Positions 1 through 56,471 of a stretch of 57,590 nt of DNA are shown piece after piece (the first letter of the stretch is position 1; each line of letters starts with the position of its first letter). Origin of the DNA: Sphacelaria rigidula (taxonomy: Eukaryota). The notes under the pieces were generated by a model. It saw only the letters and a list, made by a program, of their open reading frames with translations, searched no databases and had not been told where the DNA came from. The DNA lies in the NCBI GenBank assembly GCA_964200075.2, contig CAXNAA020000003.1, positions 1-57,590 on the forward strand, given 5' to 3'. Made by a program: the position numbers and the translations under genes.

Positions 1-541
1 CAAGAAGGAGAAAGAAGTTGATCGTTGGTCCAAGGGGTATCCACGCAACTTTTGCGTCATTCCAAGTGTCTGGGCTGCGTGTACCTGGGTTGCAACGGTG
101 AAATAAAGCCTACGAATTGATTCGTCACGAGTCGACTCATCATTCTAAAACCAAGTAATTTTCAGACGAATCATTATTTGTCCGACCCTTGCAACATTTT
201 CATCATCACTGCGCACAACATTTCCGGGGGTGCATCCGCATTTCTTTCTTTTTTTCACGGAGTCAAAGCATTTTTCTAGTTTTTGCAGAAACTTCATATC
301 ACTCTAACTTCCTGTTTTTTGTTTTTTACATTGCACCTCGAGAAATGTTGTGCGTAGTGATGATGAAAATGTTGTGTCAAAATTTCAGTGCCCAACCCTT
401 CGGATTACCCGCTGCATCGCCAACATACATTCAAAAATCATAGTCGGCTGGCCCAGCCTGTCGCTCGTAAGAACCCATTCCCACAGTCCTTGTGAATATC
501 TCAGAGCACCCGAACGCAAAACTTTAAACCTTCAGTTTTTA

Positions 542-2462: not shown

Positions 2463-2600
2463 TCAACAACCCATCTGCGCTCTTCTTGTGTCATCCAGGA
2501 GACGCTTCGTGCCGACGGTGTCTTCGTGATCCTCCCCAAGCGCTCTTCTGCGAATTGCCAAGGCTGTCTCACAGAGCGCTGCGCTCTCCTTGTACTTTCC
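2463..2600 (-). CDS. Divergent terminal (capping) TPR exon GKYKESAALCETALAIRRRALGEDHEDTVGTKRLLDDTRRAQMGC*
   Basis: gtgcag|GGA AAG TAC acceptor in phase 0, the same 42-aa register as the array, then TGA. Not reported in this frame by the ORF track. Confidence 0.82.
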   Translation of the reverse strand, partial: GKYKESAALCETALAIRRRALGEDHEDTVGTKRLLDDTRRAQMGC

Positions 2601-11600: not shown

Positions 11601-14600
11601 TTTTCGGGGGACAACACAAAAGGACGTTTCATGGAACAATCGTTGCGACGGTACGACTGATGCCAGGATGGTGGACTCAATGTGCCTTCTTAGCGTACCG
11701 GAATGGACGTAGGGTTGGGACCTCGGAGCATCGCACATTATCCCCTTACGGGACTTATTTTTGCGGGTATGAGAGATGACTATGGTACGGTGTTCCGTCC
11801 AAACTACGTGCAGCCTCTGTGATTAATCTCTCAATGCATTCACAAGAGGGGAGTTTGGACCAGCGAGGGGTGAATATTTGTTTGGAAACCTTGCAAAAGC
11901 CCTCTCACGCGTCTGAAATGCACCGTCGTCTGTGGTCAATCATGCAGGTTCTTATCCGCTGGGACAACACAGCCAAGGCATAGGAAAGGAGTTTGCATTA
12001 GCCCAACGGATGGCCCAAAAGCGGTGGCGCTATAGTAGAGGGAACAGGTTGCCTCTTACAAGAAGTACAAGGGATACAACACCTGCCGTTGACAGCAGAT
12101 TGTCTCGCCCTTGTAGTCGAGATTGATTTTTCCGCCCACTCACCATTTCCTCAAGGCGATGAATGCTGGGGTAAGCAGAGAGACGGTTCTTAGCCCTTTT
12201 GGAAATCGCCAAAAACAGTACAAACTTCTATATGCCAGCTTTCGTTGCCGGGAAAACATCACTTCGAGTTCGGTGCACGAATCTGTCACATTATTATACT
12301 TGAACTGAGAGTGGTGCACCGTTTTGGTGGGCTGTATCATCAACACTTGCAGAAAAAAAACATATCTTGCCCAAGAAAACGTCAATTGTACATCGCCACT
12401 TCTCCATCAACGGTTCCAAAAGGTTTAATGGGACAGGGGGCGTGTTCGAACACCACTGACTCGGGTCATATTGCGGTAAGGGCAACATTTGGCCGACACA
12501 TCGGGAATCGGAGGATACGCGCTACGGCTATGCCTCTGTGCATCGTACTTGACACTGTGCCGAGCGCCCGATTATTATTTGCATACGGTAACGATGAACC
12601 CACAGAATTTCGTTTGACTAGAACGATGCGACATTTTCTAGCGAGGGGGGCATTCAGTGGTAGAGCCCCGATGATTGGCGAGTTGTGGAGACCGTCAAGG
12701 TTCGACTTAAAGCGCACAAGGAGGGTCGATAGCAGTTGGGGATGGTTTTGGAACAGGGGGGCGTTTGTTGCATGTTCGCGGTGCGTTACCTCCCGACGCT
12801 CGTGTTTTGTTAAGGCATACAAGCAGCGGTTTGCTCGAGGCACTAATAGTCCCAGAGTCTCCAGCGGGAGCTGAAGGAGGGAGCGCCGTTAGCTTGATAC
12901 GCGTTGGGTTCAAGGTCAGATGCTCAACCTGGTAAACAAGCTACATCGGCGATGACGTCGATTGTGAGGCAGCAGGGACTTCATACCGCACGAGTATGAG
13001 CTTCGATCTCGGGTGGTACAGGAGGGGCGACGAGGTCGGCAGCAGTCGGCATTCATCTACTATGGATGTATTTCAACGAGAACATTGACGCAGTGGCGCA
13101 CTGATGGCATATATGCTTGCCAAGTTGAGACATTGGAGAAATTTTCAAAAACGTCGTCAGTGCGTGTGGTAGTCAGAATGCTCCAGCGCGATCAAGGGAC
13201 TCAACGGGTAGACTCAGCTCTTTCTGCAGTCTTTGCCACCGACCCAACCCCTCCTGTGCTGCAAAGAGCTGCGCACTGTTGTCTGGTACTGAGCAGATAT
13301 GAACCACTATGTGCTATGCACTGTGTGCCGTGGAAGGCGAGGGCACTGTACTTTAATATTGCTTGTAGTATTTAGCTGATAAGACGAGGTTTTACAAATT
13401 GAGGATGGAATTGTTTTTGGGACGAACCTTGGGAACCTTTATATGCATAAAAAATGTTCCGGCAAAGAACAAAATGCAAATGCACTATCCGGCCGTGACG
13501 TGTGGTCTCGCTCATCCCCGAAACCGAACCACCAGCACATTTCAAAACTCGCGCTGAAGCAGGATTATGACAGATGTGAATAGTTTCTTGTAAGGCAATG
13601 AACCGATGTCGGAATTGCCCGGTAAGAGCACGGAGTTTTATATATTGCGGGTGAGTTATTTTGAGGTTGAGCAAGGTTACACATCATCGCCGGAGAGTGC
13701 ATTTGCGCTTTTATTTCGAACACATTTTGATGCTCATGAAGGTTCCCAAGGTCCATCCTCGACACAAATCCATACTCGATCTTGAAAATTCTGTGCCTAC
13801 TGACGAACCAACGCCATCTCTACAACATCACGGCAGCAGGTACTACAGAGTATGGGTGAAATGATGTGACATGCAATGTGATACCGAAACATGCCGGAAG
13901 TGCGCCACCAACGCCTCGAAAGTACCAATACTGCGAAAGCAAGGCGGGATCTCACAGCAGTAGTGGTAGCCAGCGTGTACCACGTACTTGTCCGTGAGAG
14001 CTTGTACAGTCAACTTAACACATGGAAAATCCACACTCACGTGGCCTGTCAAAATATGCGGTCTGGGGTTCTCAGGCACTCATTTCCATACAACCTCTCA
14101 GCATATACTTCTTCAGACAAAGATAAATGTGCTGTGCAACTTGAAAGACAACACATCCGAAGCCGAACTGAACCGTGAGCGATATTGGGCGATCTGAAAG
14201 GGACTGGATGCCAGAGGGTCTGGAGACAGACGAGGCAGTAGAAGAGATACAGGAGGGCAGGGAAGAGGCAGTGGGCTGGCAGCTGGGCACCTGCGTTTGG
14301 ACGCCCTCGTACTATCTGCTCGCGGGTCTTCACCCTCGTTCCCACCAACTTGTCTCTTGGTGATGGGTGCTTCTGAACTGCTGGCTCTCCCACGGGCAGT
14401 ATATGGGTATTGAGTGGAAGCGGTACTGATATAAAATACAGCGTGTCAGTTTTAAGCCGGGGCTGAGCCTCACAAACCCTTCAAGGACAACCCCTTAGAC
14501 TAATGCTTCACAAACACACAACGACCATGAGAAGAAACTTGAATCGCGTTGTGCCATATTGACTTGATTGGGTAATTGATTGTTGTATATTAGCTGATCC

Positions 14601-17600
14601 CCGAGGGGCCTAGCTGTGGTCTCAATATAAATGTACCCAAGGTGAACGAAACAGAGCGCTCACTGAAGAACAAAAAGTGGAAAAACCAAAACTAAAGGTA
14701 AACGGAGTGGAATCTAGAAAACTAACCAAGCACGAACAAAATAGGAAGAGGAAAAACATGAAACAGTGCCGATGGAACATATACATGTATGTATCATGGG
14801 AAAGGACTAAAGGCCGAGGAAGATTGTGAGCAGAATCGTAGGTTCGCCACAAACTCCTGTCGAAGCCACCAACCCCTGCCGGAAGATTCAAACTAGTTGG
14901 CGTTTGTGCTGCTAAAAAGTACGCCCAGTAGGGACACGTTTTGGCCCAACGTGAGCGGCCGCTGGGATGTGGTTGACAACGCCGTAGCACCGAATCTCAG
15001 TCAGGGGTTCCGTACCGCAGCGGGGAGCTATCGCTACCGCCTCACCCAGATGTATAGCCGATGAGCAATGTATGGCCGCGGCCAAGGGTACTGTGACCAA
15101 TATCGACTGCTCGGGGGTAGAACGGTTCGACTTCGCCGCGTTCACCCCGTAAGTCGAAGTTGGCCCAAAAAAACAGCGAACATCGACACTATACACTGTC
15201 ATTTACACGTCGACCCACGACTACAACGAAGTTCCATCGGCTCTCACCCGAGCTTCCAACAACCCCGCAAGGTTGTGGAGCGTGGCGGCCAAGTTTGGGT
15301 GCTCCGGGCCGAGAAGCTTCTCCTGCATCGCCTGACACTGCTCGTAGAGTGCCTCGGCCTCGGTGGGTTTGCCCTGCAATGTAATACACGACGCAGAAGC
15401 ACCCTATAACGATCAACGCAAGAACTGCAAGGGTGTCGAGGCCATCCCGCCACCGCCCTGCTGAGGTGTGCAGCGGGAGACCGATGTGTGTACAGGGCCA
15501 GGGATACTGTGCCCGACCTCGACCGCTCAGAGGTACGGCGGGTTGTCATTGCAGTGTTCACCATCTCAGTGAACACTGGCTCACATGACCGGCGGACAAC
15601 ACCAACACCACATAATGTCGTTCACACGTCGACATACGACTACGACAAAGTTCCACCTGCTCTCACCTGAGCTTGCAACAGCTCCGCACGGTAATGGAGC
15701 GTCTTGGCTAAGTTCGGGTGCTCCGGGCCGAGAGCCTTCTCCTGCATCGCCTGGCACCGCTCGAAGAGTGCCTCGGCCTCGGCGTACTTGCCCTGCAATG
15801 CAGTACACGACGCAGAAGCATCCTGCCAAGGTCAACGTCGGACCCACAACGGCGGACAGAAGTTCGCGCCACCGCCCCACCCAGGTGTGCAGCCGGCGAG
15901 TGATATGTGTACAGGGCCAAGGGTATTATGTATGCCCAATCTCGGCGGCTCAGAGGAGCAACCGGTTGGCATTCCCGCCTTCGCACTGTCAGTCAACGTT
16001 GGCCCCACAGGACCAGCGAACGTTGACACCGAAATATCGTTCGCACGTCGATACACGAATAAGACAAGAGTTGCAACGGCTCTCACCTGAGCTTGAAACA
16101 AGCGCGCACGGCTACCCAGCGTTGCAGCCAAGTCAGGATGCCCCGGGACAAGAACTGTCTCCAGAATCGCCTGACACCGCTCGTAAAGTGGCTGAGCCTC
16201 GGCATACTTGCCCTGTAATATAGTTCACGACGCGGAAACAGCTTAGAACGGTCAACGTCAGACGTTTGTGTAACGTCGGCCAGACGGTCGCGTCACCGCC
16301 CCCCCAGGTGTGCAGCCGGCGAGAGCCATGTGTACAGGGCCGAGGAAACTATGCCCGATATAACGGGTTGGCTTCTCCGCACTCACCCTCTCAGGAAACG
16401 TTGTCCCACAGGACTATCCAGGAGCATCAACACCACACGATGTCGTTCACACGTCGACACAAGAGCACGATAAAGGTACAACTCCTCTCACCCGAGCTTG
16501 CAACAACCTCGCACGGTTGTGGAGCGTGACGGCCAAATCACGGTTCACCGGGCCGAGAACCTTCTCCTGCATCGCCTGGCACCGCTCGAAAAGTGGCTCA
16601 GCCTCGGCGTACTTGCCCTGCAATGCAGTACACAACGCAGGGGTAGCCTGTAGCAGTCAACGTCGGATCTACAACGGCGGAGAGATGCCCGGGTTACCCC
16701 CTCGCCTTGGTGTGCAGCCGGCCTCCGATGCGTGCGAAGGCAAAGGGTGCTATGCCCGATCTCGACGGCTAAGGGGTACGAAGGGATGGCTTTCTCTAGG
16801 GTCGACGCTCCTAAGAGTGCGGCGGCGGGTGCGAGTGGGAGCATCCCCCACATTGCCTTCAGCAAAGCTTGCGAACGCTCGGGGCGCCTTCCCCATACGA
16901 CTGCCGCGAGGCAGTCTAGCCGAGCCTTCGGGTACTCGGGACACGAACTCGCTTGCGAGGTACGTGTTGGGTTGGGATTCCTCTATCCGTCAAGGAAAAA
17001 CAAAAGGGTTGACTTCCACGCTTCCACCCTCTCAGTCAACACCACCAGCAAACATCAACACCACAATGTCGTTCACACCAACACACAACAACGACGAAGT
17101 TCCATCAGCTCTCACCTGAGCTTGAAACAACCCTGCACGGTTGCGAAGCGTTATGGCCAAGCTCGGGTGCTCTGGGCCGAGAGCCTTCTCCAGTATCGCT
17201 TGGCACCGCTCGTAAAGTGGCTCAGCCTCAGCATACTTGCCCTGCAATGTAGTGTACAACGTCCAAGAAACCTACAACAGTAAACACTGGACACAACAGC
17301 GACGAGGCGCTCCCGCCACCACCCTGCCCTGGTGCGTAGCCGGCGAGCGATGTGTATACAGCGCCAAGGGTACTCTTCCCAATCTCGACCGCTCAGAGGC
17401 ACAGCGGGTTGATCTCGGGGTAATCACCTTCTCAGTCAACACGTCGACACACGACAACGAGAAAGGTACATCGGCTCTCACCTGAGCTTGCAACAACCAC
17501 GCACGGTTCTGAAGCGTTCTGGCCAAGTTCGGGTGCTCTGGGCCGAGAGCCTTCTCCAGTATCGCTTGGCACCGCTTGTAGAGTGGCTCAGCCTGGATGT

Positions 17601-20600
17601 ACTTGCCCTGCAATGTAGAAACGACGCAGAAGCATCCCGTGACAGTCAACGTCGGACCTATGACGGCGGCGAGACGTTTGCGCCATCGCTCTGTTCAGGT
17701 GTGCAGCCGGTGAGCGATTGGTGTACAGGACCACGGATACTATACCCAATCTCGACTGCAAAGGAGTACAACGGATCCGTCTCGCAGTACATGCCCTCTC
17801 AGCCAATGCTGGCCCACAGGATCAGCAAACATCAACACCACACAATGCCGTTCACACGAACACGAGAACTTTTTACCGACTCTCGCCTGAGCTTCCAGTA
17901 ATCCCGCACGGTTGTTGATCGTGACGGCCAACTCAGAATGGTCGGGGCCAAGCAGTTTCTCCTCAATCGCCTGGCCCCGCTCATATAGCGGCTCAGCCTC
18001 GGCGTATTTGCCCTGAAATGCAGTACACGGTTCAGCAGCAGCCTGTAACAGTCAACATCGGACCCACATCGGGGGCCAGAAGCTCCCACCACTGCTTCGT
18101 CAATGCGTGCAGACGGTGAGCAATATGCCGACAGGGCCGAGGATACTATGCCTGATCTCGACGGCTCAGATGTACAACAGGTTGGCTTCACCGCACTTAT
18201 TCCCGAGTCACCGTTGGCTTACAACACCAAATGACATCATCGGCATCACAAAATGTCGTGTACAAGTCGACAGACGACTACGACAAAGTTCCGTTCGCTT
18301 TCACCTGAGCTTGCAACAATCTCGCACGGCTGTGAAGCGTTGCGGCTAAACTAGGGTTCATCGGGCCGAGAACCCTCTCCTGCATCGCCTGGCACCGCTC
18401 GAAAAGTGGCTCAGCCTCGTTGTACTTGCCCTGCAATGCAGTGCACGACGCAGGAGCATCCAGTAACCATCAATGCCGGACCTGCAACGGCGGAGAGATG
18501 CTCGCGCCACCATGCCGATCAGGTGTGCAGCAGTTATGTACAGGGCCAAGAGTAAAATGCCTGATCTCTACGACCCACACGTACAACGGCATGGCCTAGC
18601 CGAGACCGCCCTCCCAGTCATCGTTGACCCACAGCACCAGCGAACAACATCGAAGACACACAATGTTCCCCACACGGACACCCAACGACGAATAAGTTTC
18701 ATCGGCTCGCACCTGAGCTAGCAACAAACCCGCACGGTTGTGAATCGTTATAGCCAGGCTAGGGTGCTCCGGGCCGAGGACCTTCTCCTGAATCGCCTGG
18801 CACCACTCGTAGAGTCGCTCAGCGTCGGTATACTTGCCCTGCACCGTAGCACGAAACAGAAACAAGCGATAACAGTCTACCTCGGACCCGTAACGGCGGC
18901 GAGACGCTCGTGTCACCGCCCAGCCCAGGTGCGCAGCAGGAGAGGCCAACGTGCACAGGGTCAAGGGCAATATGCCAGATCTCGTCCGCTTAGAGGTACC
19001 TCTATTTGGCCTAGTCGCACTCACCTTGTCAGTCAACGTTGGCCCACAGCACCAACGAACCACACCAATACTACACAATGTCGTTTGCATGTCGACACAC
19101 GACGACGACAAGTTCCAACGGCTCTCACCTGAGCTTCCAACAACCCTGCCCGACTACACAGGGTTGCAGCCAAGTCAGGATGCTCGGGGCCGAGAATCTT
19201 CTGCTGGATCGCCTGGCTTTGTTTGTAGAGTGGCTCCGCTTCGGCGTACTTGCCCTGCAATGTCGTTGAGGGCGCAGACGTAGCGTGAAATAGTCAACGT
19301 CGGATCTAGCACGGCGGCGAGGCGCACGGGTAGTACCCCGACCTGGTGTGCAACCAGCAAGCGATGTGTACAGGAAGGGCCATTCGTGCGATCTCCATTA
19401 TCGACGGCTCATAGATGCACTAGGTAGACCTCGCCGCACTCACTTCCTCAGCCGACGTTGACCAAACCTGACCAGCGAAGAACGTCAACACCACACGAAG
19501 TCATTTATATGTCGACACACGACACGGAAAAATTTCCATCGGCTTTTACCTGAGCTTGCAACAACGCCGCACGGTTGCAGAGTGTGGCGGCCAAGCTTGG
19601 GTGCTCCATGCCAAGAATCTTCTCCTTCATCTCATGGCACTGCTCGTAAAGTGGCTCGGCTTCGGCGTACTTGCCCTGTAATGTAGGACACGACGCAGAT
19701 CCAGCCCATAGCAGTCAACGTCGGACCAACAACGGCACCGAGACGTTCGCGCCACTGCGCCCCCCAGATGTGCAGCCGATGAGCGCTAGGTGTACAGGGC
19801 CAAGGCTACTATGGCGCATCACGTCGGCTCAGGGCTGCAACGAGTTGGCTTCGCCCCACTCACTCTCAGTCAAGGTTAGCACACAGGATCAGCGGAGATC
19901 CCAACACGACACAAAAATGTTTACACATCGACATACAACTAGCAGGAAGTTCCGTTAGCCTTTACCTGATACTTCAACAAACTCGCACGGTTGCCAAGCG
20001 TTGTGGCCAGACCTGGGTGCTCCTGGCCGAGAACCTTCTGCTGGATCGCCTGGCACCGCTGGTAGAGTAGCCCCGCCTCTGTGTACTTGCCCTGCAATGT
20101 AGACGCGACGCCGATTGCCTCGTCTTTACGGCTCAGGGGTACAATAGATTTGGCTCGCCGCACTCGCATTCTCCGTCAAGGTTGACTCACAGTACCAGCA
20201 AACAACTTCGACACCACATGTTGTCGCTCACACGTCGACACACGACTAGGGAGTTCCATCGGTTCATACCTGAGCTTGCAACAGCCCCGCACGGTTGTTA
20301 AGCGTTATGGCCAAGCTTGGGTGCTCCAGACCAAGAATCTCCTCCAGCATCGCCTGGCACCGCTCGTAGATTTCCTCCGCCGCCGAAAACTCGCCCTGCA
20401 ATGCAGCACAAAACGCAGAAGCAGCCTGAAATGTTCAACGGCGAATCTACAACGGTAGCGCGACGCCCGGGCCACCGCCCTGCCCTGGTATGCAGCCGAC
20501 GAACACTGTATATACAGGGTCGAAGGTACTGTGCACGACCCCAATGGCTCAGAATTACAATACGTTAGCTTTCCCGCACCCTCTTAGTCAACGTTGTCCC

Positions 20601-23600
20601 ACAGGACCAAATGACATCATCGGCATCACAAAATGTCGTGTACAAGTCGACAGACGACTACGACAAAGTTCCGTTCGCTTTCACCTGAGCTTGCAACAGT
20701 CCCGCACGGCTGTGAAGCGTTGCGGCTAAACTAGGGTTCATCGGGCCGAGAACCCTCTCCTGCATCGCCTGGCACCGCTCGAAAAGTGGCTCAGCCTCGT
20801 TGTACTTGCCCTGCAATGCAGTGCACGACGCAGGAGCATCCAGTAACCATCAATGCCGGACCTGCAACGGCGGAGAGATGCTCGCGCCACCATGCCGATC
20901 AGGTGTGCAGCAGTTATGTACAGGGCCAAGAGTAAAATGCCTGATCTCGACGACCCACAGGTACAACGGAATGGTCGTTGACCCACAGCACCAGCTAACA
21001 ACATCGAAGACACACAATGTTCCCCACACGGACACCCAACGACGAATAAGTTTCATCGGCTCGCACCTGAGCTAGCAACAAACCCGCACGGGTGTGAATC
21101 GTTATAGCCAGGCTAGGGTGCTCCGGGCCGAGGACCTTCTCCTGAATCGCCTGGCACCACTCGTAGAGTGGCTCAGCGTCGGTATACTTGCCCTGCACCG
21201 TAGCACGAAACAGAAACAAGCGATAACAGTCTACCTCGGACCCGTAACGGCGGCGAGACGCTCGTGTCACCGCCCAGCCCAGGTGCGCAGCAGGAGAGGC
21301 CAACGTGCACAGGGTCAAGGGCAATATGCCAGATCTCGTCCGCTTAGAGGTACCTCTATTTGGCCTAGTCGCACTCACCTTGTCAGTCAACGTTGGCCCA
21401 CAGCACCAGCGAACCACACCAATACTACACAATGTCGTTTGCATGTCGACACACGACGACGACAAGTTCCAACGGCTCTCACCTGAGCTTCCAACAACCC
21501 TGCCCGACTACACAGGGTTGCAGCCAAGTCAGGATGCTCGGGGCCGAGAATCTTCTGCTGGATCGCCTGGCTTTGTTTGTAGAGTGGCTCCGCTTCGGCG
21601 TACTTGCCCTGCAATGTCGTTGAGAGCGCAGACGTAGCGTGAAATAGTCAACGTCGGATCTAGCACGGCGGCGAGGCGCTCGCGCCATCACCCCGCCCAC
21701 GTATGCAGGTGTGCAGACGGCGAGCGATGTGTGTACAGGGCCAGGAGTACCGTGTCCGATTTCGACGACTTAGAGATACAGGTCGGACTCGCCGCACTCA
21801 CTTCCTCAGTCAGCGTTGACCACACCTGACCAGCGAAGAACGTCAACACCACGCAAGACCGTTCACACGTCGACACAAGACTACCGTAAAGACACATCGG
21901 TTCGTACCTGAGCTTGCAAGAATCTCGCACGGCTGCGTAGCGTTGTGGCCAGCTTTGGGTGCTCCGGGCCGAGAACCTCCTCCTCGATCACCTGGCACCG
22001 TTCGTAAAGTGACTCAGCCTCAGCGTACATTCCCTGCAATGTGGTACACGATGTGGAAGTAGTCTGTAACGGCCCAAGTCGAATACATAATGGCGGCGAG
22101 GTGCTCTCGCAACTACCCTGCTCTGCTGGGAAGCCCGCGAGCGATATGTGTACAAACCCAAGGACACGGTGCCCAGTCTCGATGGCACAGTGGTACAACG
22201 GGTTCGCCTCACCTCACTCGCACCCTCAGTCAACGTTGGCCAAAAGCACTAGTGAACACCATCTACACTACACAAAGTCGCTCACACGCCGACATTTGAC
22301 CATCGGAAAGGTACATCGGCTTCAACCTGAGCTTGCAATAACTCCGCACGGTTGTGAAGAGTTGTGGCCAGGGTTGGGTGCTCCGGCCCGAGAACCTTCT
22401 CCAGCATCGCCTGGCACCGCTCGTAGAGCGCCTTTGCCTCCGTATACTTTCCCTGCAATGTAGAAACGCAGAAGCAGCCTACGACAGTCGACGTCAGACC
22501 TAAAGCGCCGGCGAGACGTTCGCGCCACCGCCTTGCCCAGGTATGCAGCCAACGAGCGATGTGTGTACGGGGCCAAGAGTACTTACCATGTTCGATCTCC
22601 TCGGCTCAGAGATATGAGGGGTTGGCATTGCCACACACGCCCCCTACGTTGACGTTGACCCGCAGGACCAGAAAACAATATCGAAACCACAAAATATCAT
22701 TCCCATGCCAAATAATCCGACAACGAGGAAGTCTCATGGGCTATCACCTGAGCTTGCAACAACCCCGCACGGCTGTTAAGTATTGTGGCCAAGGTCGGGT
22801 GCCCCTGACCCAGCACTTTCTCATCGATCGCCTGGCACCGCTCGTAGAGGGGATCAGCCTCGGTGTACTTGCCCTGCAATGTGCAGGAGGTAGGAGCAAT
22901 CAGCAACAGTCTAATTCGGACTCGCCACGGCGACGAGATGCTCCCGCTACTGCCCAGCCCTGCTGCGCAGCCGGCGAGCGATGTGTGAACAGGGTCAAGG
23001 ATACTCCATCCACTCAGTTTCGACTGCTCGCAACGTATGAGGGGTTGGCCTCGCCACATTCGCCCTCTGAGTCAACGTAAGTCAACAGGATCAGCCAACA
23101 GGATCGGCACCACACAATGCCTTTCATACATGGACACACAACTGAAAAATATTTCCATTGGCCCTCACCCGATCTTGCAACAACCCCGCACGGTTGTGGA
23201 GCGTGGCGGCCACACTCGGGTGCTCCGGACCGAGAGCCTTCTCCTTCATCGCCTGGCACAGCTCGTAGAGTGACTCGGCCTCGGCATACTTGCCCTGCAA
23301 TGTATTACATGACACGGGAGCAGCCTAAAATAGTTAACAGTGTACCTAGAAAGGTGGTGAGACGTTCGGGCCACCGCCCCGCCTAGATGTGCAGCAGGTG
23401 AGCGCTGCGTGTACAGGGCCAAGGGTACCATGTCGGGTCTCGACGGCTCAGAGGTACGGCAGGTTGGCATTGTCGCACTCACCCTCTCAGTCAACGTTGG
23501 CCCACAGGGCCAGCGAGCAACATCTACACCACACAACGTCGTGCACACGTCGACACACGACTAGGAGAAAATTCCGTCGGTTTATACCTGAACATGCAAC

Positions 23601-26600
23601 AAACCCACACGCTGTGGCCCCACAGCGGCAGCGAGACCCGTGCGCTGTCGCCCCGTCGACCGCTATGAGTATGTGTACCGGGTCGAGGACACTGTGCCCG
23701 ATCTCGACGGCTCGGCAATACAACAGGTTGGCTCCATGGCACTCACCCTCTCAGTCAACGATGGCCCACAAGACTATGAACAGCGCACAACATCAACACC
23801 ACACGATGTCGTTCAAATGTTGACACAAGTCTACGAGAGAGTGCAAATGGCTATCGCCTAAGCGTTCAACAGCCCCGCACCGTGATGAAGCGTTTTGGTC
23901 GAGTCAGAATTCGTCGGGTCGCGACCCTGTCCCTCACCCTAACCTTAAGCCCAACCCATCCTAGCCGTGACCCTAACCCTAAATCCTGCATCGCCTGGCA
24001 CCTGAGCTTGCAACAACCCCGCACGGCTTCCCAGCGTTGCCGCCAATGCTGGGTGCTCCGTACCGAGAAGCTTCTCCTGTATCGCCTGGCACCGCTCGTA
24101 GAGTAGCTTAGCCTCGGCGTACTTGCCCTGACATGGAGGACGTGAAGCAGTCTGTAATTGTCAACGTCGGACCAACAACGGCCGCGAGACGCTCGCTTCA
24201 CCGCCTCGCCTAACTTTGCAGCCGGCGAGCGATGTCTGTAAAGGCTCAACGGTACTATGTCCGACCTCGACGGCTCAAAGGTACAACGGGGTGGTCTCGT
24301 TGCATTCATCCTGTCAAAGTTGGCCCACAGGACCAGCGCATGGTCTACACAGCGCAATGTTGTTCACGCGTCACCAAACAACTACGACGATGTTATATCG
24401 GCTCTCACCCGGGCTTGCAACAACTTCGCACGGCTGTGAAGCGTGGCGGCGAAGACTGGGTGCTCCGGGCCGAGAACCTTCTCCCTGATCCCTTGGCACC
24501 GCTCGTAGAGTATCTCAGCCTCGTCGTACTTGCCCTGCATGTAGCACAGCGCGTCACGTGTCAACAATGAAGATGCAGTTCACGACGCGCAAACAGCCAA
24601 GAAGAGACAACGTCGGATCTACAACGGCGAGGAGATGCTTGCGCAACCCCCCCGCCCTGAGGTGCTGACAATGAGCGCTGTGCTTACAGGGCCAAGGGTA
24701 CAATGCCCGATACCGATGGCGAAGAGGTACGACGGGCGGGCAATGCCGATGCTCTCAGTCACCGTTGGCCCAGAGGACTAGCGACCAACATCAGCACTAC
24801 ACACGGTCGCTCACACGTCTAGATACTACTCCAATACGATGAAGATCCATCGGTTCCCACCTGAGCTTGAAACAACCCCGCACGGTTGTCAAGCGTTGCG
24901 GAGAAATTCACGTGCTCCGGGCCAAGAAACTTCTCCTCAATTGCATGGCACCGCTCGTACAGTGGCTCCGCTTCGGTGTACTTGCCCTGCAATGTAGTTA
25001 AGGACACAAAAGCGCATATAGGAGTTATTGTCGCACCTACAACGGCGGCGAGGCGCTCGCGCCATCACCCCGTTCACGTGTGCAGTTATGCAGCGGGCGA
25101 GCGATATTTGTGTACAGGGCCAAGAGTACTGTGTCCAATGTCGACAGCTCAGAGGTATACCGGGTGGACCTAGCCGCACTCACCCTCTCAGTCAGCCTTG
25201 GCACGCAGGGCCAGCGAGAAACACCAACACCATACGATGCCGTTCACACGTCGACACGCGACTGCGAGGAAGCCACACCGGCTCTCACCTGAGCTTGCAA
25301 CAAATGCGCACGGCTTCTCATCGTTGCGGCTAAATCAGGATGATTCAGGTCCAGGACTTTCTCCTGTATCGCCTGGCACCGCTCGTAAAGTAGCTCAGCC
25401 TCGGTGTACTTGCCCTGCAATGTATTACACGGCGCAGAAGCAGCGTATAACAGTTACCGTCGGACACACAACAGCGGCGAGCTGCTCGCACCACGGCCCC
25501 GCCTAGGTGTACAGCCGGCAAGCGCTATATGTACAGGGTCGAGAGTACAATACCCAATCTCGACCGCTCAGAGGTACAACGACCTGGCTCCGCCGCACTC
25601 ACCCTCTCAGCTAACGTTGGCCCACAGGGCCAAGCGCAATAAAAACCAAAGTATCGTCAACACGAGCACCCGACAACGGTAATGTTCCATCTGCTTTCAC
25701 CTGAGTTGTCAACAACCCCGCGCGGTTGCAGACCGTGGTGGCCAGGCTTGGGTGCTCCGGGCCGAAGACATTCTCTTTTATAATTTGGCATCGCTTGTAG
25801 AGAGGCTCAGCCTCGGCGTACTTGCCCTGGAATAGAAACGACAGCAACAGACGAATCTCAGTCCGACCAAGATTTGGGTTGGGTTATGGCGAAAGTACGT
25901 TTGAGATAACCCCACCATTTCGTCAAATCATACGGCTAAACGGGGATGCTTCGGGCCAAGGGATCCCTCTGTAATGCTATATCGCTTTGGCACGCACTTG
26001 AGCTGCCTGCTAGTAACTCTCGTGAATACCTTTTGGTAGAGGCGTGACTAAGTGTTTTCTCCGTCACACTTTCGACCCCTCCCCTTCCTGGGAATAAATC
26101 ATTGGTATCAAAGGATGAACCCACCCATCTCTCCCCTGGTACACGGCTTGCACTTTGGCCTCGCGGATTGGATCAGCTCCTCCCCACTGCGTCGATTCAC
26201 GTCAAACAATTCAGTCAACTCTTTCCGTTACTCACGTACTCACGCTTCTAAAGACGGAAATCAGAGTGAAGATTTAACCCAAACACATCACGTTTTTACG
26301 CGATTTAGCTCACTAGAGCATTGGGCCAACTCCCAAGGGCAAAGCCGTATCGTACTTGGCTCGGAATTTTATTTTCCAAAAGTAGCCCATTTGATTTTTG
26401 ATCGAGAAAATAGAACCGCCTTTCCCGGTCTTTTTAATTTTTGATCGAGAAAAGTAAAACTGATGTACGAGCCCAGGACTGCTGCTGCATGTTGTTCACT
26501 GTCTGTTGTAGATGTGTGCTGTATGTAACATACGTAGCCGGTAACGGTAAAAAATGGTTTAAAATCATTATGCAATTTTTTCACATAACCATAACCATTG

Positions 26601-29600
26601 TTACCATTATAATTATAGTAGCCAGTTAGAACTGGCACCATTTCCGAGCTCTGATAATGCGAGCTTCTACGAGTCAAGGACACTGTAGTTTTACAGGCTT
26701 TTGTGCAGGTGACGTGCGTCACTGACGGTACTCCACAGGCATCGTAGGTAAGGTAGGTATCCGGTACCAGTACTTGGGACATCTCATACCCTACCGATAC
26801 CCGTCCAATCGTGGATTTTAAAGGTTATACCTACGATACCCACGATTCCACGGTATTCCGATATTTCCATATCTACCGTACCCGCTCGATCGGGTACTTT
26901 CAAAACTCATACCTACGATACCCACGATACCGCGGTATTTCGAGGTTTCAATACCTACCGTACCCGCCCAATCGGGTATTTTTGAATGTCGTACCTACGA
27001 TACCTACGATACCTACGATACCACGGTATTTCGAGATTTCAATACCTACCGTACCCGCTCAATCGGGTATTTTTCAAAACTCATACCTACGATACCTACG
27101 ATACCTACGATACCTACGATACCATGGTATTTCGAGAATTCAATAACTATCGTACCCGCTCACTCGGGTAATTTCAAAACTCATACCTAAGATACCTACG
27201 CATACCACGGTATGGGATACCCCGGTAAATACCGGGAGTATACCCGGGGATACCGGACGCGATGTACTCCCCACGGTGCAGCAGCTGGTCCCAACTTTTA
27301 TGCAAAGGCCAGAAGTTGTCGCACTAGGTACGTCTTGTTTTCACAAGTAATATATACCCAGATTCCCCCTGATTGACGTGTTTGGGTCAATTTGAATGAC
27401 TTCATTATTATGTAGTCTGACGTGCGGTTGATTTTTTCTCTCGATCTGATGAGTCCACCGCATTTCTGTTCTTAGAACGCTTTATCTTTAATATGTAATT
27501 AGTGGCGCGCGGAGAGAAACTGCAAAACAAAGTAGGTGAGCAGCTTCGATCGAAAACATACGGTCGAAACGCACGAAAAGGCACTTGACTAATATGTTAC
27601 GGACCACCACGTCAGATAACACCCGTTCACAGAACCATGCAAACTCCACCCAACTCATTCTCAACTACCATCCCAACCCTGCAGCATGGAGTACGAGTTG
27701 AGCACATAGAGATGGATACCCTGCAGTTGGGTATGCTTTGTGTATTTTTTGTTGGCAACAACTTGCGCATCTTCTTCCATGGTAAGATCAGCGACGGAAC
27801 TGCGTGGTACGGTGGGCAACCGAGTTGCGTACACGCTCATGAACAGTGCAGGCAGTACAAAGCTGCACGTTGTTGAAGTCCTTTTCACGTCTAGTTGCAA
27901 GCAGAGATAACTGATCGTCCTGGGTTGTCTGCACTGCACGTTGTCCGCTTCTCTTGAAAATCTTACTGCACGGAACACGCATACACGCACTCGAGACACA
28001 CTGCTTGAAAGCAGTGCAGACAGTACAGAATGTCTGTACTGTACACAAGTGACCATGTACCGTTTCACGAATTCCACCGTCTTTTTTCGGTCGAAAGCTT
28101 GAAAAATCGATTAGGCCCAACTCGACAAAAATGTGCAATTTTCGTTCAGCCAATTCCACCGCCATATTTTTTAGATTATATTTTTCGCAAAGACACGCCC
28201 TGAAACGCTTCTCCGCACTGCCGGATAACAGTTTTGTATTTGGTATGGAGGGTAAAGCAGGTACCCGGTACCGGTATTTGGGACATCTCATACTCTACCG
28301 ATACCGACTCAATCGGGTATATTCAAAACTCACACCTACGATGCCCACGATACCACGGTATTTCGAGATACCAGTACCTACCGTACCTGCCCAATCGGGT
28401 ATTTTCAACACTCATACCTACGATACCTATGATACCACGGTAATCCGAGCAACCAATACCTACCATACTCGCTCAATCGGGTATTTTCAAATCTCATGCC
28501 AACGACACCTACGATACCACGGTATCTCGAGATTTCAATACCTACCGTACCTGCTCAATCAGGTATTTTCAAAACTCATACCTACGATACCTACGCATAC
28601 CACGGTATGGGATACCCCGGTAAACACCAGGGGTACGGTCGGTACGGTACCTTACCTACGGTTTCTGTGCGGTACTCTAGGATGTGCTATCTCTCAAGTA
28701 TCTAGCTGTTAAGCATTGCTCGAGAGCGTGGATAGGGCTCACACTTTCGAACAGATGCAATTATTAAACCATCCACAACAAATTTCACAAAATTATCGAT
28801 CGACTCACGATTGAGCCTGCAACACCGCCCAGTTTATGTTCCGTCTTGAGCGGCTCTCATGTGAGCCGTCCCGACGAATATTATTTCTCCTATATCTGAT
28901 ATCGGGTGCTTCGAAGATCCGAACGGGCGGCGCAGGAAGACATCTTGGTTGATTTTGTATCAAATGCACACTCTGGACAATATGTGAGAAAGGCATATCG
29001 CTCGAGTGGTCAGAGACCTACGGGGGAGACTGCCGTCCTGATGCCGAAGGAACTCCGAGGCTGGCCACGATTTCCTCTTCTACATGTAGGCAAGAAGTAG
29101 GGTCAGACTAGGAGTGGTCGTCAGGGGTGACAAGGACCTTGGGGGATGTTGGACCGTCCTATATTAGGCTCTTTCTGGCATCACCCCGAGTTGTCTAGTA
29201 ACGTTGGCATTACAGGGTTCTCGGTAGTTTGGTTCTTCCGGACCGTTCCCACCTTGTCCCCGCTTGCGCTGGGTCTGCATACATGTGTGGAATCAGTCTC
29301 TGATATGTCATTGCAAAGAGGCATCCTCCACATTTCCCCCCCTTTATGCGCCTCAAGCCCATCGAGGCTATGGCTGGTGGGACGAGGCGATCATCAGCTT
29401 CGCTGATGATATAGTCATGGAGGTTCCTTTGAGTGACAATCATTGATGGAGTCACGCCACCACTTATCACAAACGTAACCCTTCTCTATACTGCGGTATT
29501 GAATAAACACCCCCAGAAATATTCACCTATATTTGGTCAGTAACAGTGCATGTATTCCAAACCCTCTAATTTGGATTTTTCTGCCATGTAGCTGTCATAT

Positions 29601-53600: not shown

Positions 53601-53768
53601 TGTGCGGTCTACTACGGTAGTAATATCCGTGTGCTCAACTGTCTCTGTCGCTCTCGCCCGTACCGCTCACCAGAACGCTTCCACGTCACGTATATGAACT
53701 CTTTCTGAACACATCAGATTGTCGGTTCTCACCTGGACCCGAGTGCCCACGACGGCCGGGGAAGCCAT
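2463..53768 (-). CDS. Multi-exon NB-ARC-TPR (NLR-like STAND) receptor gene. Coding exons 53768-53733, 53312-52158, 51868-51554, 50876-50499, 25 TPR exons between 25826 and 15248, terminal exon 2600-2463; about 1720 aa if all exons are included
   Basis: All junctions are phase 0 with AG acceptors and GT (one GC) donors. NB-ARC motifs occur in the expected order, and the last NB-ARC exon (...ADVAEVYALIGALFRLQ) continues naturally into GKYAEAEPLY... Linkage across the 24.7 kb and 12.6 kb introns is inferred; the latter contains an N gap. Confidence 0.8.
4231..4314 (+). mobile_element. tRNA-derived SINE-like head (Pol III A and B boxes)
   Basis: TGGCTCAGTTGG at 4238, GGTTCAAATCT at 4282, then a T6 run; no convincing cloverleaf. 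Confidence 0.6.
4893..4902. other. Assembly gap
   Basis: Run of 10 N. Confidence 1.
7287..7704. mobile_element. hAT-like MITE
   Basis: TIRs TAGAGCTCCGAAATGGT and ACCATTTCCGAGCTCTA, 8-bp TSD CTGGTGAG/CTAGTGAG. Confidence 0.8.
8875..9704. mobile_element. Foldback/TIR element with ~155-bp inverted arms
   Basis: gtcagcgattttca...acgacttccgggctga versus tcagcccgtaagtcgt...tgaaaatcgctgac. Confidence 0.7.
10286..10331. repeat. (GA)n microsatellite
   Basis: Direct inspection. Confidence 0.9.
10573..10864. mobile_element. MITE; a related arm lies at ~33685-33790
   Basis: tgttttcgtgagattgagagtagag / ctctactcttggtcttacgaaaaca inverted ends. Confidence 0.6.
15248..15373 (-). CDS. TPR exon 25, last of array (GKPTEAEALYEQCQAMQEKLLGPEHPNLAATLHNLAGLLEAR)
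   Basis: 126 nt, open, CAG acceptor, GTGAGA donor. Confidence 0.83.
15667..15792 (-). CDS. TPR exon 24 (GKYAEAEALFERCQAMQEKALGPEHPNLAKTLHYRAELLQAQ)
   Basis: 126 nt, open, CAG acceptor, GTGAGA donor. Confidence 0.85.
16087..16212 (-). CDS. TPR exon 23 (GKYAEAQPLYERCQAILETVLVPGHPDLAATLGSRARLFQAQ)
   Basis: 126 nt, open, CAG acceptor, GTGAGA donor. Confidence 0.83.
16492..16617 (-). CDS. TPR exon 22 (GKYAEAEPLFERCQAMQEKVLGPVNRDLAVTLHNRARLLQAR)
   Basis: 126 nt, open, CAG acceptor, GTGAGA donor. Confidence 0.85.
17116..17241 (-). CDS. TPR exon 21 (GKYAEAEPLYERCQAILEKALGPEHPSLAITLRNRAGLFQAQ)
   Basis: 126 nt, open, CAG acceptor, GTGAGA donor. Confidence 0.85.
17482..17607 (-). CDS. TPR exon 20 (GKYIQAEPLYKRCQAILEKALGPEHPNLARTLQNRAWLLQAQ)
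   Basis: 126 nt, open, CAG acceptor, GTGAGA donor. Confidence 0.85.
17887..18012 (-). CDS. TPR exon 19 with GC donor (GKYAEAEPLYERGQAIEEKLLGPDHSELAVTINNRAGLLEAQ)
   Basis: 126 nt, open, CAG acceptor, non-canonical GCGAGA donor. Confidence 0.7.
18305..18430 (-). CDS. TPR exon 18 (GKYNEAEPLFERCQAMQERVLGPMNPSLAATLHSRARLLQAQ)
   Basis: 126 nt, open, CAG acceptor, GTGAAA donor. Confidence 0.85.
18713..18838 (-). CDS. TPR exon 17 (GKYTDAERLYEWCQAIQEKVLGPEHPSLAITIHNRAGLLLAQ)
   Basis: 126 nt, open, CAG acceptor, GTGCGA donor. Confidence 0.85.
19129..19254 (-). CDS. TPR exon 16 (GKYAEAEPLYKQSQAIQQKILGPEHPDLAATLCSRAGLLEAQ)
   Basis: 126 nt, open, CAG acceptor, GTGAGA donor. Confidence 0.85.
19550..19675 (-). 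CDS. TPR exon 15 (GKYAEAEPLYEQCHEMKEKILGMEHPSLAATLCNRAALLQAQ)
   Basis: 126 nt, open, CAG acceptor, GTAAAA donor. Confidence 0.85.
19966..20091 (-). CDS. TPR exon 14 (GKYTEAGLLYQRCQAIQQKVLGQEHPGLATTLGNRASLLKYQ)
   Basis: 126 nt, open, CAG acceptor, GTAAAG donor. Confidence 0.85.
20270..20395 (-). CDS. TPR exon 13 (GEFSAAEEIYERCQAMLEEILGLEHPSLAITLNNRAGLLQAQ)
   Basis: 126 nt, open, CAG acceptor, GTATGA donor. Confidence 0.83.
20685..20810 (-). CDS. TPR exon 12 (GKYNEAEPLFERCQAMQERVLGPMNPSLAATLHSRAGLLQAQ)
   Basis: 126 nt, open, CAG acceptor, GTGAAA donor. Confidence 0.85.
21067..21192 (-). CDS. TPR exon 11 (GKYTDAEPLYEWCQAIQEKVLGPEHPSLAITIHTRAGLLLAQ)
   Basis: 126 nt, open, CAG acceptor, GTGCGA donor. 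Confidence 0.85.
21483..21608 (-). CDS. TPR exon 10 (GKYAEAEPLYKQSQAIQQKILGPEHPDLAATLCSRAGLLEAQ)
   Basis: 126 nt, open; identical by eye to the exon at 19129-19254. Confidence 0.85.
21908..22033 (-). CDS. TPR exon 9 (GMYAEAESLYERCQVIEEEVLGPEHPKLATTLRSRARFLQAQ)
   Basis: 126 nt, open, CAG acceptor, GTACGA donor. Confidence 0.85.
22327..22452 (-). CDS. TPR exon 8 (GKYTEAKALYERCQAMLEKVLGPEHPTLATTLHNRAELLQAQ)
   Basis: 126 nt, open, CAG acceptor, weak GTTGAA donor. Confidence 0.8.
22748..22873 (-). CDS. TPR exon 7 (GKYTEADPLYERCQAIDEKVLGQGHPTLATILNSRAGLLQAQ)
   Basis: 126 nt, open, CAG acceptor, GTGATA donor. Confidence 0.85.
23169..23294 (-). CDS. TPR exon 6 (GKYAEAESLYELCQAMKEKALGPEHPSVAATLHNRAGLLQDR)
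   Basis: 126 nt, open, CAG acceptor, GTGAGG donor. Confidence 0.85.
23588..23620 (-). pseudogene. Truncated TPR exon (only the 3' end and donor remain)
   Basis: tatac|ctgaacatgcaacaaacccacac matches an exon 3' end, then runs directly into intron-unit sequence with no acceptor or GKY codons. Confidence 0.7.
23858..24001 (-). pseudogene. Broken TPR exon: 5' part deleted, telomere-like insertion, last codon TAG, GC donor
   Basis: Exon remnants tcctgcatcgcctggca and ctaagcgttcaacagccccgcac flank a tract of CCCTAA-like hexamers. Confidence 0.75.
24002..24127 (-). CDS. TPR exon 5 (GKYAEAKLLYERCQAIQEKLLGTEHPALAATLGSRAGLLQAQ)
   Basis: 126 nt, open. The donor GTGCCA appears to have been created by a deletion that fuses it to the next broken unit. 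Confidence 0.7.
24409..24534 (-). CDS. TPR exon 4 (GKYDEAEILYERCQGIREKVLGPEHPVFAATLHSRAKLLQAR)
   Basis: 126 nt, open, CAG acceptor, GTGAGA donor. Confidence 0.85.
24861..24986 (-). CDS. TPR exon 3 (GKYTEAEPLYERCHAIEEKFLGPEHVNFSATLDNRAGLFQAQ)
   Basis: 126 nt, open, CAG acceptor, GTGGGA donor. Confidence 0.85.
25289..25414 (-). CDS. TPR exon 2 (GKYTEAELLYERCQAIQEKVLDLNHPDLAATMRSRAHLLQAQ)
   Basis: 126 nt, open, CAG acceptor, GTGAGA donor. Confidence 0.85.
25701..25826 (-). CDS. TPR exon 1 of array (GKYAEAEPLYKRCQIIKENVFGPEHPSLATTVCNRAGLLTTQ)
   Basis: 126 nt, open, CAG acceptor with a unique pyrimidine tract (gtttctattccag), GTGAAA donor. Confidence 0.88.
26515..26651 (-). repeat. Inverted partial copy of the 7287 MITE left arm
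   Basis: Reverse-complement match to ~7289-7440, ending in accatttccgagctct. Confidence 0.7.
26734..28669. mobile_element. hAT-like non-autonomous composite element: two GATACCTAC-repeat modules around ~1 kb of cargo
   Basis: Left TIR CACAGGCATCGTAGGTAAGGTA, right end TACCTTACCTACGGTTTCTGTG, perfect 8-bp TSD CGGTACTC (26726-26733 and 28670-28677). Confidence 0.8.
30969..31170. repeat. Inverted repeat, core of a probable MITE nested in the Gypsy element
   Basis: gtctcaaactcggctcccgg...gtgtcctattttttcaagtgaaagtgat versus atcactttcacttgaaaaaataggacac...ccgggagccgagtttgagatac. Confidence 0.75.
35285..35800. repeat. Two tandem ~285-bp diverged units; a third copy at ~29620-29780
   Basis: Shared ttgcatc...gggcactggga...ggtccacgggcgcctggg...ggttccgc/actgacaccg core. 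Confidence 0.65.
36380..37240 (-). pseudogene. Gypsy integrase remnant
   Basis: VPVARPYERVSV, VLDHLTRYALLIAVP, PYFLLFGRQPRLPIDI, FTPGQKVLLY and VHLAHLKNY across shifted frames. Confidence 0.8.
40265..41664. repeat. Degenerate ~40-bp unit repeats in both orientations, interrupted by the Copia insertion (resumes ~47915-48060)
   Basis: Recurrent atcaatagatttgg...ctatcgata...attgccg motif on both sides of the GGGGC TSD. Confidence 0.6.
41665..47909 (+). mobile_element. Ty1/Copia LTR retrotransposon, full length but decayed
   Basis: 5' LTR 41665-42245 and 3' LTR 47542-47909 (TG...CA), perfect 5-bp TSD GGGGC on both sides, PBS-like GGCTATGAGCCT at 42246, G-run PPT before 47542. Domain order is gag-PR-INT-RT-RH. 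Confidence 0.95.
42479..46790 (+). pseudogene. Copia gag-pol with frameshifts and stops
   Basis: gag (AWDGL..K), protease VVDSGASNHF, WHKILGHPS...CVTC, integrase RIRTDRGGEY and PYTPQQNGMSER, RT WVYKLK..KARLVVQG, LDVQTAFLNG, LYGLRQSP, FVDD, RNase H GYCDSS, STTEAE, NQLADILTK. Split over about nine ORFs. Confidence 0.93.
48495..49867. mobile_element. Large foldback element with tRNA-like heads in both arms
   Basis: 48720-49000 is the reverse complement of ~49100-49400. tRNA-like A/B-box segments lie at 48495-48580 (+) and 49793-49867 (-). Confidence 0.7.
50499..50876 (-). CDS. Exon: NB-ARC winged-helix region (VHD = MHD motif) and linker into TPRs
   Basis: acag|GAT ... CAG|gtgggt, 378 nt. Encodes DEEGAKQEAEFLARSALL...FYVHDLLLDF...LIGALFRLQ. 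Confidence 0.9.
51554..51868 (-). CDS. Exon: NB-ARC helical region (GLPL-like motif)
   Basis: cgtag|GTT ... AAG|gtgcgg, 315 nt. Encodes VAEECGRLALALAIAG...VLSVSLEELGREEQDMFLSLVVL...LAALWEK. Confidence 0.92.
52158..53312 (-). CDS. Exon: N-terminal helical domain plus NB-ARC core
   Basis: 1155 nt open frame from ttag|GCG (ALERTQEAIEE...) to AAG|gtacaag. Contains YVER, P-loop GMGGAGKTTLA, IFWLTVG, Walker B LVVVDDVW and LLVTTR. Confidence 0.93.
53733..53768 (-). CDS. Probable first coding exon (MASPAVVGTRVQ) of the NB-ARC-TPR gene
   Basis: ATG at 53768 and CAG|GTGAGA donor, in phase 0 with the next exon. A pyrimidine-rich acceptor at 53811 (ttttttgccag) means the exon may begin at 53810, with a further upstream UTR or coding exon. 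Confidence 0.6.
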
Positions 53769-56039: not shown

Positions 56040-56471
56040 CACAGGAACCGTAGGTATGGTAGGTACCCGGTACCGGTATTTGGGACATCTCATACCCTAC
56101 CGATACCGATCCAATCGGGTATTTTCAAATGTCATACCTACGATACCTGCGATACCAGGGTATTTCGAGATTTCAATACCTACCGTACCCGCCCAATCCG
56201 GTATTTTCGAAACTCGCACCTACGATACCTACGGAACCAGGGTATTTCGATATTCCGATATCTACCGTACCCGCCCGATCCGGTATTTTCAAAACTCGTA
56301 CCTACGATATCTACGATACCAGGGTATTTCAAGGTTTCAAGACCTACCGTACCCGCTCAATCCGGTACTTTGAAATGTCATACCTACGATACCAACGCAT
56401 ACCACGGTATGGGATACCCCTGTAAATACCGGGGGTACGCTCGGTACGGTACCTTACCTACGGTGCCTGTG
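56040..56471. mobile_element. hAT-like MITE, single-module member of the same family
   Basis: TIRs CACAGGAACCGTAGGTATGGTA and TACCTTACCTACGGTGCCTGTG, 8-bp TSD ATGCCGTC/ATGCCATC, internal ~65-bp tandem units. Confidence 0.85.

Follow-up and report, generated by a model that had tools for sequence, protein, structure and literature searches.

The window, the whole analysed stretch of 57,590 nucleotides from Sphacelaria rigidula (contig CAXNAA020000003.1), holds a complete NB-ARC-TPR gene of about 1,723 amino acids, which runs from 53768 to 2463 on the minus strand and appears, by sequence, to resemble an immune receptor. Its exons and the associated repeat features are as follows.

53733..53768, minus strand: exon 1, beginning with ATG, 12 aa, matched by eye to the N-terminus of P0001, with a GT donor
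52158..53312, minus strand: exon 2, 385 aa, helical N-terminal domain and NB-ARC, 81% to P0001
51554..51868, minus strand: exon 3, 105 aa, remainder of the NB-ARC region, 88.6% to P0001 residues 400-504 by tblastn, bounded by AG/GT
50499..50876, minus strand: exon 4, 126 aa, VHD motif and lead-in helix
25908-25986, coding (minus) strand: exon remnant
15248..25826, minus strand: TPR array, 25 exons of 126 nt in phase 0, from the sequence, with junctions in probable RNA contigs
Low ends of the first 13 TPR exons: 25701, 25289, 24861, 24409, 24002, 23169, 22748, 22327, 21908, 21483, 21067, 20685, 20270
Low ends of the last 12 TPR exons: 19966, 19550, 19129, 18713, 18305, 17887, 17482, 17116, 16492, 16087, 15667, 15248
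23859..23928, minus strand: degenerate exon remnant (nhmmer E=1.9e-6), adjoining a telomere-like (TTAGGG-type) stretch
20514..21679: three-exon duplicate, a recent copy of 18131-19325, exons identical at 124-126 of 126 positions
2463..2600, minus strand: terminal exon, 45 aa followed by TGA, comprising a divergent half repeat and a capping helix

Exon 2 contains the motifs GMGGAGKT and VVVDDVW, which we take to be the P-loop and Walker B, respectively. The NB-ARC in this exon matches Pfam PF00931 (E=1.4e-16). The predicted fold of the N-terminal 192 residues has a pLDDT of 45.7, and the ESM Atlas gave MLKL_N for the N-terminal domain only as a lead (score 0.92, 36% of one cluster), the top matches being without a family. 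The exons upstream of the array are in frame, and P0001 unites the same parts, NB-ARC and TPR, in one gene, where the counterpart of exon 4 is spliced straight onto the first TPR exon. Exon 4 is presumably joined in the same way to the exon ending at 25826, over an intron of 24.7 kb.

Within the array, AG precedes all 25 exons, while GT follows 24 of them and GC the remaining one (17887). Codon 33 of each TPR exon lies at its low end +27..29 and codon 34 at +24..26. Splicing occurs as predicted at 13 of the 24 adjacent-exon junctions, among the 15 joints listed of 19 in contigs from three runs of one study (X1-X3), whose RNA origin is presumed. The forward joints listed all link adjacent exons with no skipping among them, in contigs whose assembly loses rare splice forms. 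The overhang of RNA-type contigs past the exon at 15248 led to the terminal exon (2 mismatches over 24 nt, with 0 such matches expected by chance). A search of positions 14000-27000 against Rfam gave 0 matches at E up to 0.1. The three exons duplicated at 20514..21679 are present as a single copy in the collinear paralogue L004, and no inactivated exon remnants were found on the plus strand of the window. Both inactivated coding-strand exons and locally duplicated exons, as described for the brown-algal family, are present here.

Fold and variable positions of the repeat

Every array exon straddles two TPRs: its residues 2-20 form helix B of the first and, after a loop, its residues 26-41 form helix A of the second. 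The TPR_10 profile scores above its cut-off and the best PDB matches are KLC1/2; a modelled stretch, consisting of a paralogue's repeats rather than those of the window, superposes closely on KLC1 5OJ8 (pLDDT 89, TM 0.93, rmsd 1.0 Å). Position 1 of the Pfam TPR_1 profile corresponds to exon position 29, so that exon positions 30, 33, 34, 37, 40 and 41 are TPR positions 2, 5, 6, 9, 12 and 13. These are the positions at which HOP contacts its ligands, position 6 being often Asn and binding the peptide backbone. The 15 KLC1 contact residues considered, which derive from several repeats, fall on exon positions 3, 17, 30, 33 (three residues), 34 (three), 37 (two), 38, 40 and 41 (two), and the specificity switch between KLC1 N343 and KLC2 S328 is position 33. 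By homology to the solved KLC1-peptide complexes, the exposed, groove-facing sites 17, 30, 33, 34, 37, 40 and 41 correspond to the usual TPR ligand contacts. As the exon boundary lies within the A-to-B turn, each exon would form a self-contained groove strip, with 17 on helix B and the other six sites on the next helix A.

The preliminary description of the array had reported a conserved scaffold, residue lists at positions 27, 30, 33, 34, 37 and 40 and 14 kinds of residue pair at 33-34, all of which are exact in the 25 exons of 126 nt. Its placement of these six sites in a concave groove agrees with the Pfam register, the TPR groove positions and the KLC1 contacts for 30, 33, 34, 37 and 40. 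Position 27 is at the start of helix A and is absent from the KLC1 contacts considered. The six sites had also been described as highly variable. Entropy in the window, calculated over 22 non-redundant exons with three recent duplicates excluded, is highest at 27 (2.75 bits), 33 (2.50), 37 (2.28), 8 (2.21), 17 (2.20), 30 (2.11), 20 (1.93) and 4 (1.84), followed by 24, 23, 40 (1.33, rank 11), 19, 7 and 34 (1.18, rank 14 of 42). Hence 27, 33, 37 and 30 are in the top eight, but 40 and 34 are not, and the other four of the eight (4, 8, 17 and 20), which had been omitted, sit on helix B, the other helix. The variation is spread over at least 10 positions on both helices. At position 34 the codons AAC and AGC, which differ by one base, form a dimorphism (N 13, S 8, Y 1; n=22), and the lone T there stems from a recent duplicate.

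Comparison with paralogous loci, as suggested earlier, gave the same entropy profile in 168 paralogous exons (Spearman 0.87), and the profile is therefore not due to chance. The spacing previously ascribed to one helix face appears as a 100-degree periodicity of entropy along helix A. By permutation it is of borderline significance for the window (p=0.068), and the 121 family exons give a significant value (p=0.023). Groove sites exceed convex sites in variability, with 2.12 against 1.35 bits (p=0.02) in the paralogous set of 168 exons and with p=0.052 in the window, the convex and core labels being taken from general TPR geometry instead of calculated accessibility. Convex sites 4 and 8 match the groove sites in variability.

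Selection and drift at the variable sites

The proposal of diversifying selection at the six sites mostly fails to hold. In the window, dN/dS exceeds 1 at site 33 only (2.0-2.7), which becomes borderline after simulation; it is below 1 at site 40 in the window and at site 34 in all tree analyses. At most groove sites it is near 1, so that drift alone suffices. The variable sites might be exposed scaffold positions that drift neutrally under relaxed constraint with no role in specificity, in which case the array could work as a spacer, as an autoinhibitory clamp or as a binder of low specificity. This explanation is rather unlikely. It agrees with the 192 exons of the Sphacelaria rigidula genome, in which family-wide positive selection was not found, M8 (lnL -9381.6) being no better than M8a (-9380.5). 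The ten most variable sites in that set have omega 0.88-1.4, site 8 is the only one with an interval excluding 1, and site 34 is under purifying selection (omega 0.51, p=1e-6). Null simulations with omega capped at 1 matched the top site of the real data in 15, 25 and 23 of 200 cases (0, 12 and 24 conversion events, respectively) and, in further runs, reached it in 5/45 and 15/45; nucleotide rates at the variable codons are mostly within the intron range.

On the other hand, M8 is preferred to M8a in the window in all five tree/frequency settings (p=0.002-0.036), and on an intron tree of 101 related exons site 33 reaches omega 1.54 (p=0.008). Site 27 reaches a pN/pS of 1.97 in close pairs, and the six sites together 1.25 in 35 close pairs; pN/pS was relied on because comparison of pN with intron divergence is biased upward when pairs are picked on intron similarity. 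The greater variability of groove than of convex sites also argues against drift alone, as does the positive selection published for Ectocarpus TPR exons (M8: 4% of sites, omega 2.8, site 31 in that study's own numbering; PMC3341825). Within-exon recombination, assessed as incompatibility against distance, was flat at 0.60-0.65, an uninformative measure. The selection signal is weak and method-dependent, and fragile when the M8a neutral alternative and gene conversion are taken into account.

Proposed groove specificity and the possible recognition code

The reading that we favour, with moderate confidence in it as a whole, is that the 25 repeated exons are the putative sensor domain of an NLR-like NB-ARC-TPR protein, and that specificity is spread over groove patches spanning neighbouring repeats, generated by exon duplication and relaxed or weakly positive selection. 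As the sequence and the model of the paralogue show, every exon contributes a KLC-type helix pair of 42 residues to a superhelix in which buried positions stay fixed and exposed positions vary. Asn34 most likely grips the main chain of a peptide bound in extended form, in keeping with the purifying selection at this site, and the side chains at 33, 37, 30, 40 and 17 may form pockets common to two or three adjacent repeats. New surfaces would come about when whole exon-plus-intron units are duplicated, lost or reshuffled, of which duplication is observed, and perhaps also through point change under relaxed to weakly positive selection. By analogy with other NLRs, ligand binding might free the NB-ARC for oligomerisation and signalling via the N-terminal helical domain.

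It is improbable that the array is a natural programmable peptide reader, in which an Asn/Ser ladder at 34 sets the register, 33, 37 and 30 read side chains, and exon order, through duplication and splicing, programs specificity. Also very unlikely, in our judgement, is a TALE- or PPR-like code of the kind raised in the preliminary description. On this reading, a single exon would recognise one element of a linear ligand via 33-34, or via 34 with 27, and exon order would spell the target. TALE and PPR proteins are likewise long tandem arrays of similar helical modules with few variable residues. In the TALE repeat-variable di-residue, variation centres on two neighbouring residues in the interhelical loop, whereas in the PPR code paired N/S/T and D/N/S positions jointly set the letter and a basic groove accommodates RNA. 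Here the variable positions number at least ten, and the 33-34 pair is in the middle of helix 26-41. A code would suit the near-identical modules, site 33 as the strongest candidate in the window for positive selection, the N/S at 34 and S/D/N at 27, which look like PPR code letters, and the presence in each exon of 17 and 30, which share one pocket in KLC1. KLC1 pockets, however, extend across several repeats. In the 121 family exons, 33 and 34 covary weakly (z=2.5, p=0.013, rank 13 of 120), but HN dominates (39/121) over a long tail, with 33 pair types overall. RVD-like pairing was rejected because 33 and 34 vary independently in the window, where their mutual information (rank 117 of 120) lies under the mean of the shuffled data, the two positions carry 9% of total entropy, 34 is under purifying selection and the pair is mid-helix. 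PPR-like pairing of 34 with 27 of the next exon was also rejected, since 151 adjacent pairs show no association (MI 0.266, null 0.267, p=0.49) and the groove sites are mostly non-basic (K/R at most 29%), in a protein that is an NLR-like ATPase.

Relation to known TPR proteins

Brown-algal NB-ARC-TPR genes of the repetitive-exon type were reportedly treated by Teng et al. in Plant J in 2023. The family with repetitive 126-nt exons was described in 2012 (Zambounis et al., PMC3341825), and the present gene shares with it the NB-ARC with C-terminal TPRs, one 42-aa exon per repeat, the common motif GKYxEAEPLY...H...A..L.N.A.LL..Q, inactivated coding-strand exons, local duplications and a small class of possibly selected sites. 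It differs in that a single gene carries 25 intact exons, where Ectocarpus has 124 distributed over 13 loci (PMC3341825), and in that the introns are still clearly homologous. In the highly conserved TPR repeats of fungal NLRs (Podospora Pa_2_10340), variable and positively selected sites likewise lie on the concave face, modelled on a KLC2 template, repeat number changes, and the repeats have 42 residues (TM 0.85; structures 4Y6W and 4Y6C; PMC4986451). Three sites passed selection tests there, whereas the signal here is borderline, and here every repeat is a separate exon. The KLC TPR domain (42PR family) agrees in repeat length, register, fold (TM up to 0.93) and Asn at 34, as well as in the groove contacts at 17, 30, 33, 34, 37, 40 and 41; KLC has six repeats and no NB-ARC, and the compared KLC1 repeats have Leu where position 35 is Arg (21/22; 153/168) and position 14 Gln here. 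A variable groove has been published for TPRs in general (PMC1261162), and variation at ordinary TPR groove positions is a pattern already described.

A modular code, if true, would offer a programmable peptide-binding scaffold, although the sequence tests argue against it. The variable sites, unmodelled and left undetermined in the 2012 paper (PMC3341825), are now placed on solved TPR-peptide contacts, and an intact, spliced member with 25 repeats is added to a family proposed to act as pathogen receptors of brown algae.

Gene structure and splicing

The 126-nt exon is found in 25 copies on the minus strand, from 15248 to 25826, by a scan of both strands. Acceptors are AG in 25/25 exons and donors are GT in 24 and GC in one. 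This GC donor (17885-17886) is spliced in contigs from three runs, probably RNA, of a single study, and it is also present in the counterpart exon of a paralogous locus, L004. The following exons complete the model, giving a gene of 30 exons and 1,723 aa in total.

53768-53733, 53312-52158, 51868-51554 and 50876-50499, minus strand: upstream exons, encoding a helical N-terminal region and NB-ARC
2600-2463, minus strand: last exon, traced from a loose contig end

The NB-ARC domain of the upstream exons is recognized by Pfam (E=1.4e-16). We infer the junction over the 24.7-kb intron between the NB-ARC exons and the array; in the protein P0001, the single long homologue among 8,000 scored candidates (81%; source label Sphacelaria rigidula), the counterpart N-terminal and NB-ARC parts are joined straight to TPR exons. 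Within the array, introns are skipped exactly in the contigs of the three probable RNA runs, where at least 13 of the 24 adjacent-exon junctions are supported among the 15 joints listed out of 19, the two remaining listed ones lying inside a duplicated block. None of the exon joints looked for in another sequencing run, X6, was seen.

Several other features accompany the gene. The N-terminal domain (52737-53312) is all-helical; its model is of low confidence, and it has a weak ESM Atlas lead to MLKL_N-like proteins. At 23859-24001, the donor of exon 24002 sits within the remains of another exon; next come a telomere-like TTAGGG-type stretch and the 3' remnant of that other exon, an arrangement that looks like a healed break. 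An intron insertion of about 240 bp (16781-17020) is common to the paralogous locus L005 (81%), is missing from the other loci fetched and has no Rfam match. Inside the 24.7-kb intron, direct repeats (42018-42247 and 47682-47911, 97.8%) flank broken ORFs in 41660-47911, which by their motifs resemble a copia-type retrotransposon. A second direct repeat of 349 bp lies at 28984-29332 and 39088-39436. Three arrays (26790-27206, 28290-28608 and 56096-56410) are made of mutually related 82-91-bp tandem repeats.

Variable residues and the TPR groove

The conserved scaffold, the residue lists at exon positions 27, 30, 33, 34, 37 and 40 and the 14 residue pairs at 33-34 in the preliminary description were all reproduced exactly. 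Among 22 window exons, three recent duplicates being excluded, entropy is highest at positions 27, 33, 37, 8, 17, 30, 20 and 4, in this order (2.75-1.84 bits), with position 40 ranked 11th and position 34 14th. At position 34 the codon is in essence either AAC or AGC (N 13, S 8, Y 1). Of the total entropy, 30% falls on the six sites and 20% on sites 4, 8, 17 and 20.

The repeat is a KLC (kinesin light chain)-type 42-residue TPR. Four consecutive exons of P0001, modelled from the single sequence (pLDDT 89), form helices over exon residues 2-20 and 26-41, and the model superposes on KLC1 with a TM of 0.93. TPR_1 position 1 corresponds to exon position 29, so that exon positions 30, 33, 34, 37, 40 and 41 are TPR positions 2, 5, 6, 9, 12 and 13, which are precisely the set described as concave-face ligand contacts, position 6 being often a backbone-binding Asn, in the excerpted text of Magliery and Regan (PMC1261162). 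The groove is lined by helices A, according to an excerpt of PMC5642895. In the excerpted part of PMC6214655, 15 contact residues of KLC1 are named; with numbering anchored on the KLC1 repeats and PMC5642895, they fall on exon positions 3, 17, 30, 33, 34, 37, 38, 40 and 41, position 27 being absent from them. The N343/S328 specificity switch is exon position 33. The residues and their placement in the groove are real, as expected of a TPR. With convex sites labelled on exon positions by what we take to be the general TPR geometry, entropy is 1.77 bits in the groove vs 1.18 bits on the convex face in the window (p=0.052), and 2.12 vs 1.35 bits in the paralogues (p=0.02).

Arg35 (TPR position 7) is near-invariant (21/22 window exons and 153/168 paralogous exons), and Gln is conserved at codon 14. 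The KLC1 repeats examined, in contrast, have Leu at both positions, and Gln14/Arg35 is possibly a polar pair in place of a hydrophobic contact.

A per-repeat recognition code had also been proposed, with 33-34 likened to the repeat-variable di-residue (RVD) of TALE. Measured against the features of TALE and PPR codes, an RVD-like code is unlikely: positions 33 and 34 carry 9% of the entropy, and their mutual information ranks 117th of 120 pairs in the window. In 121 family exons the pair ranks 13th of 120 (p=0.013, uncorrected for shared descent); of the 33 pair types there, HN accounts for 39 of the 121. PPR-like pairing of position 34 with position 27 of the next exon was rejected, no association between the two being seen. 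The groove positions are mostly non-basic. No recognition-code proposal for the brown-algal NB-ARC-TPR family was found in the literature searched, which takes in few subscription journals.

Selection, paralogous loci and the known family

At least 150 matches to one exon as query exist in the genome. Twenty stretches, from most but not all of the contigs listed with matches, contain 175 exon hits, of which six were removed (four for stop codons and two for being out of register); after two identical sequences were collapsed, the final set comprises 168 paralogous and 24 window exons. The entropy profile of the paralogous exons follows that of the window (Spearman 0.87). L009 and L004/L005 hold counterparts of window exons in the same order, L004 without the window's three-exon duplication. 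Loci L003, L007, L010, L014 and L017 each carry homogenised signatures of their own, such as SLYD and HG (L003), PY (L007) and GRY and LY (L010), which points to within-locus concerted evolution.

Support for the suggested diversifying selection is weak and depends on the method. Under our own MG94-type codon model, in which the synonymous rate is single and trees are fixed, M8 fits the 24 window exons better than its neutral alternative M8a in five settings (p=0.002-0.036), with a top omega (dN/dS) class of 1.4-1.5. Only site 33 has p<0.02 in all five settings (omega 2.0-2.7, unadjusted p 0.001-0.019); omega is below 1 at sites 34 (0.58-0.72) and 40 (0.69-0.86). With all 192 exons M8 is no better than M8a. 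In the latter set omega is 0.96 at site 33 and 0.51 at site 34 (p=1e-6 below 1), and the interval excludes 1 at site 8 only. For 101 related exons, omega at site 33 is 1.54 (p=0.008) when the tree comes from introns, against 1.25 (p=0.15) with a combined tree. In null simulations with omega <=1 at all sites, the best observed site was matched in 15, 25 and 23 of 200 runs, and in further capped-omega simulations in 5 and 15 of 45, on trees for which the signal observed was weaker (LR 5.5-6) than on other trees used for the window (about 9-11). Among 35 close pairs picked from 1,389 candidates, pN/pS is 1.97 at site 27, 1.72 at 17, 1.58 at 40, 1.48 at 37, 0.97 at 34 and 0.90 at 33; pooling the six sites gives 1.25 (p about 0.04, error in pS being ignored). 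The leading site differs from method to method. Diversifying selection in this gene is unproven, and a fair reading of selection at the array is relaxed to weakly positive.

In Ectocarpus, 13 NB-ARC loci with 42-aa TPR exons, exon shuffling and positive selection are described in the excerpted text of Zambounis et al. (PMC3341825), where the site selected under M8 is 31 in the authors' own numbering, a register not aligned to the exon positions used here, and mapping of TPR ligand specificity is marked as not determined. In fungal NLRs, the TPR sites that vary or are under selection are mapped to the concave face, with KLC2 as the template, in an excerpt of Dyrka et al. (PMC4986451). Alternative splicing of NB-ARC-TPR genes in brown algae is attributed to Teng et al. 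(2023) in excerpts of PMC11378527 and PMC13449251. The window gene is a new member of this known brown-algal NB-ARC-TPR family.
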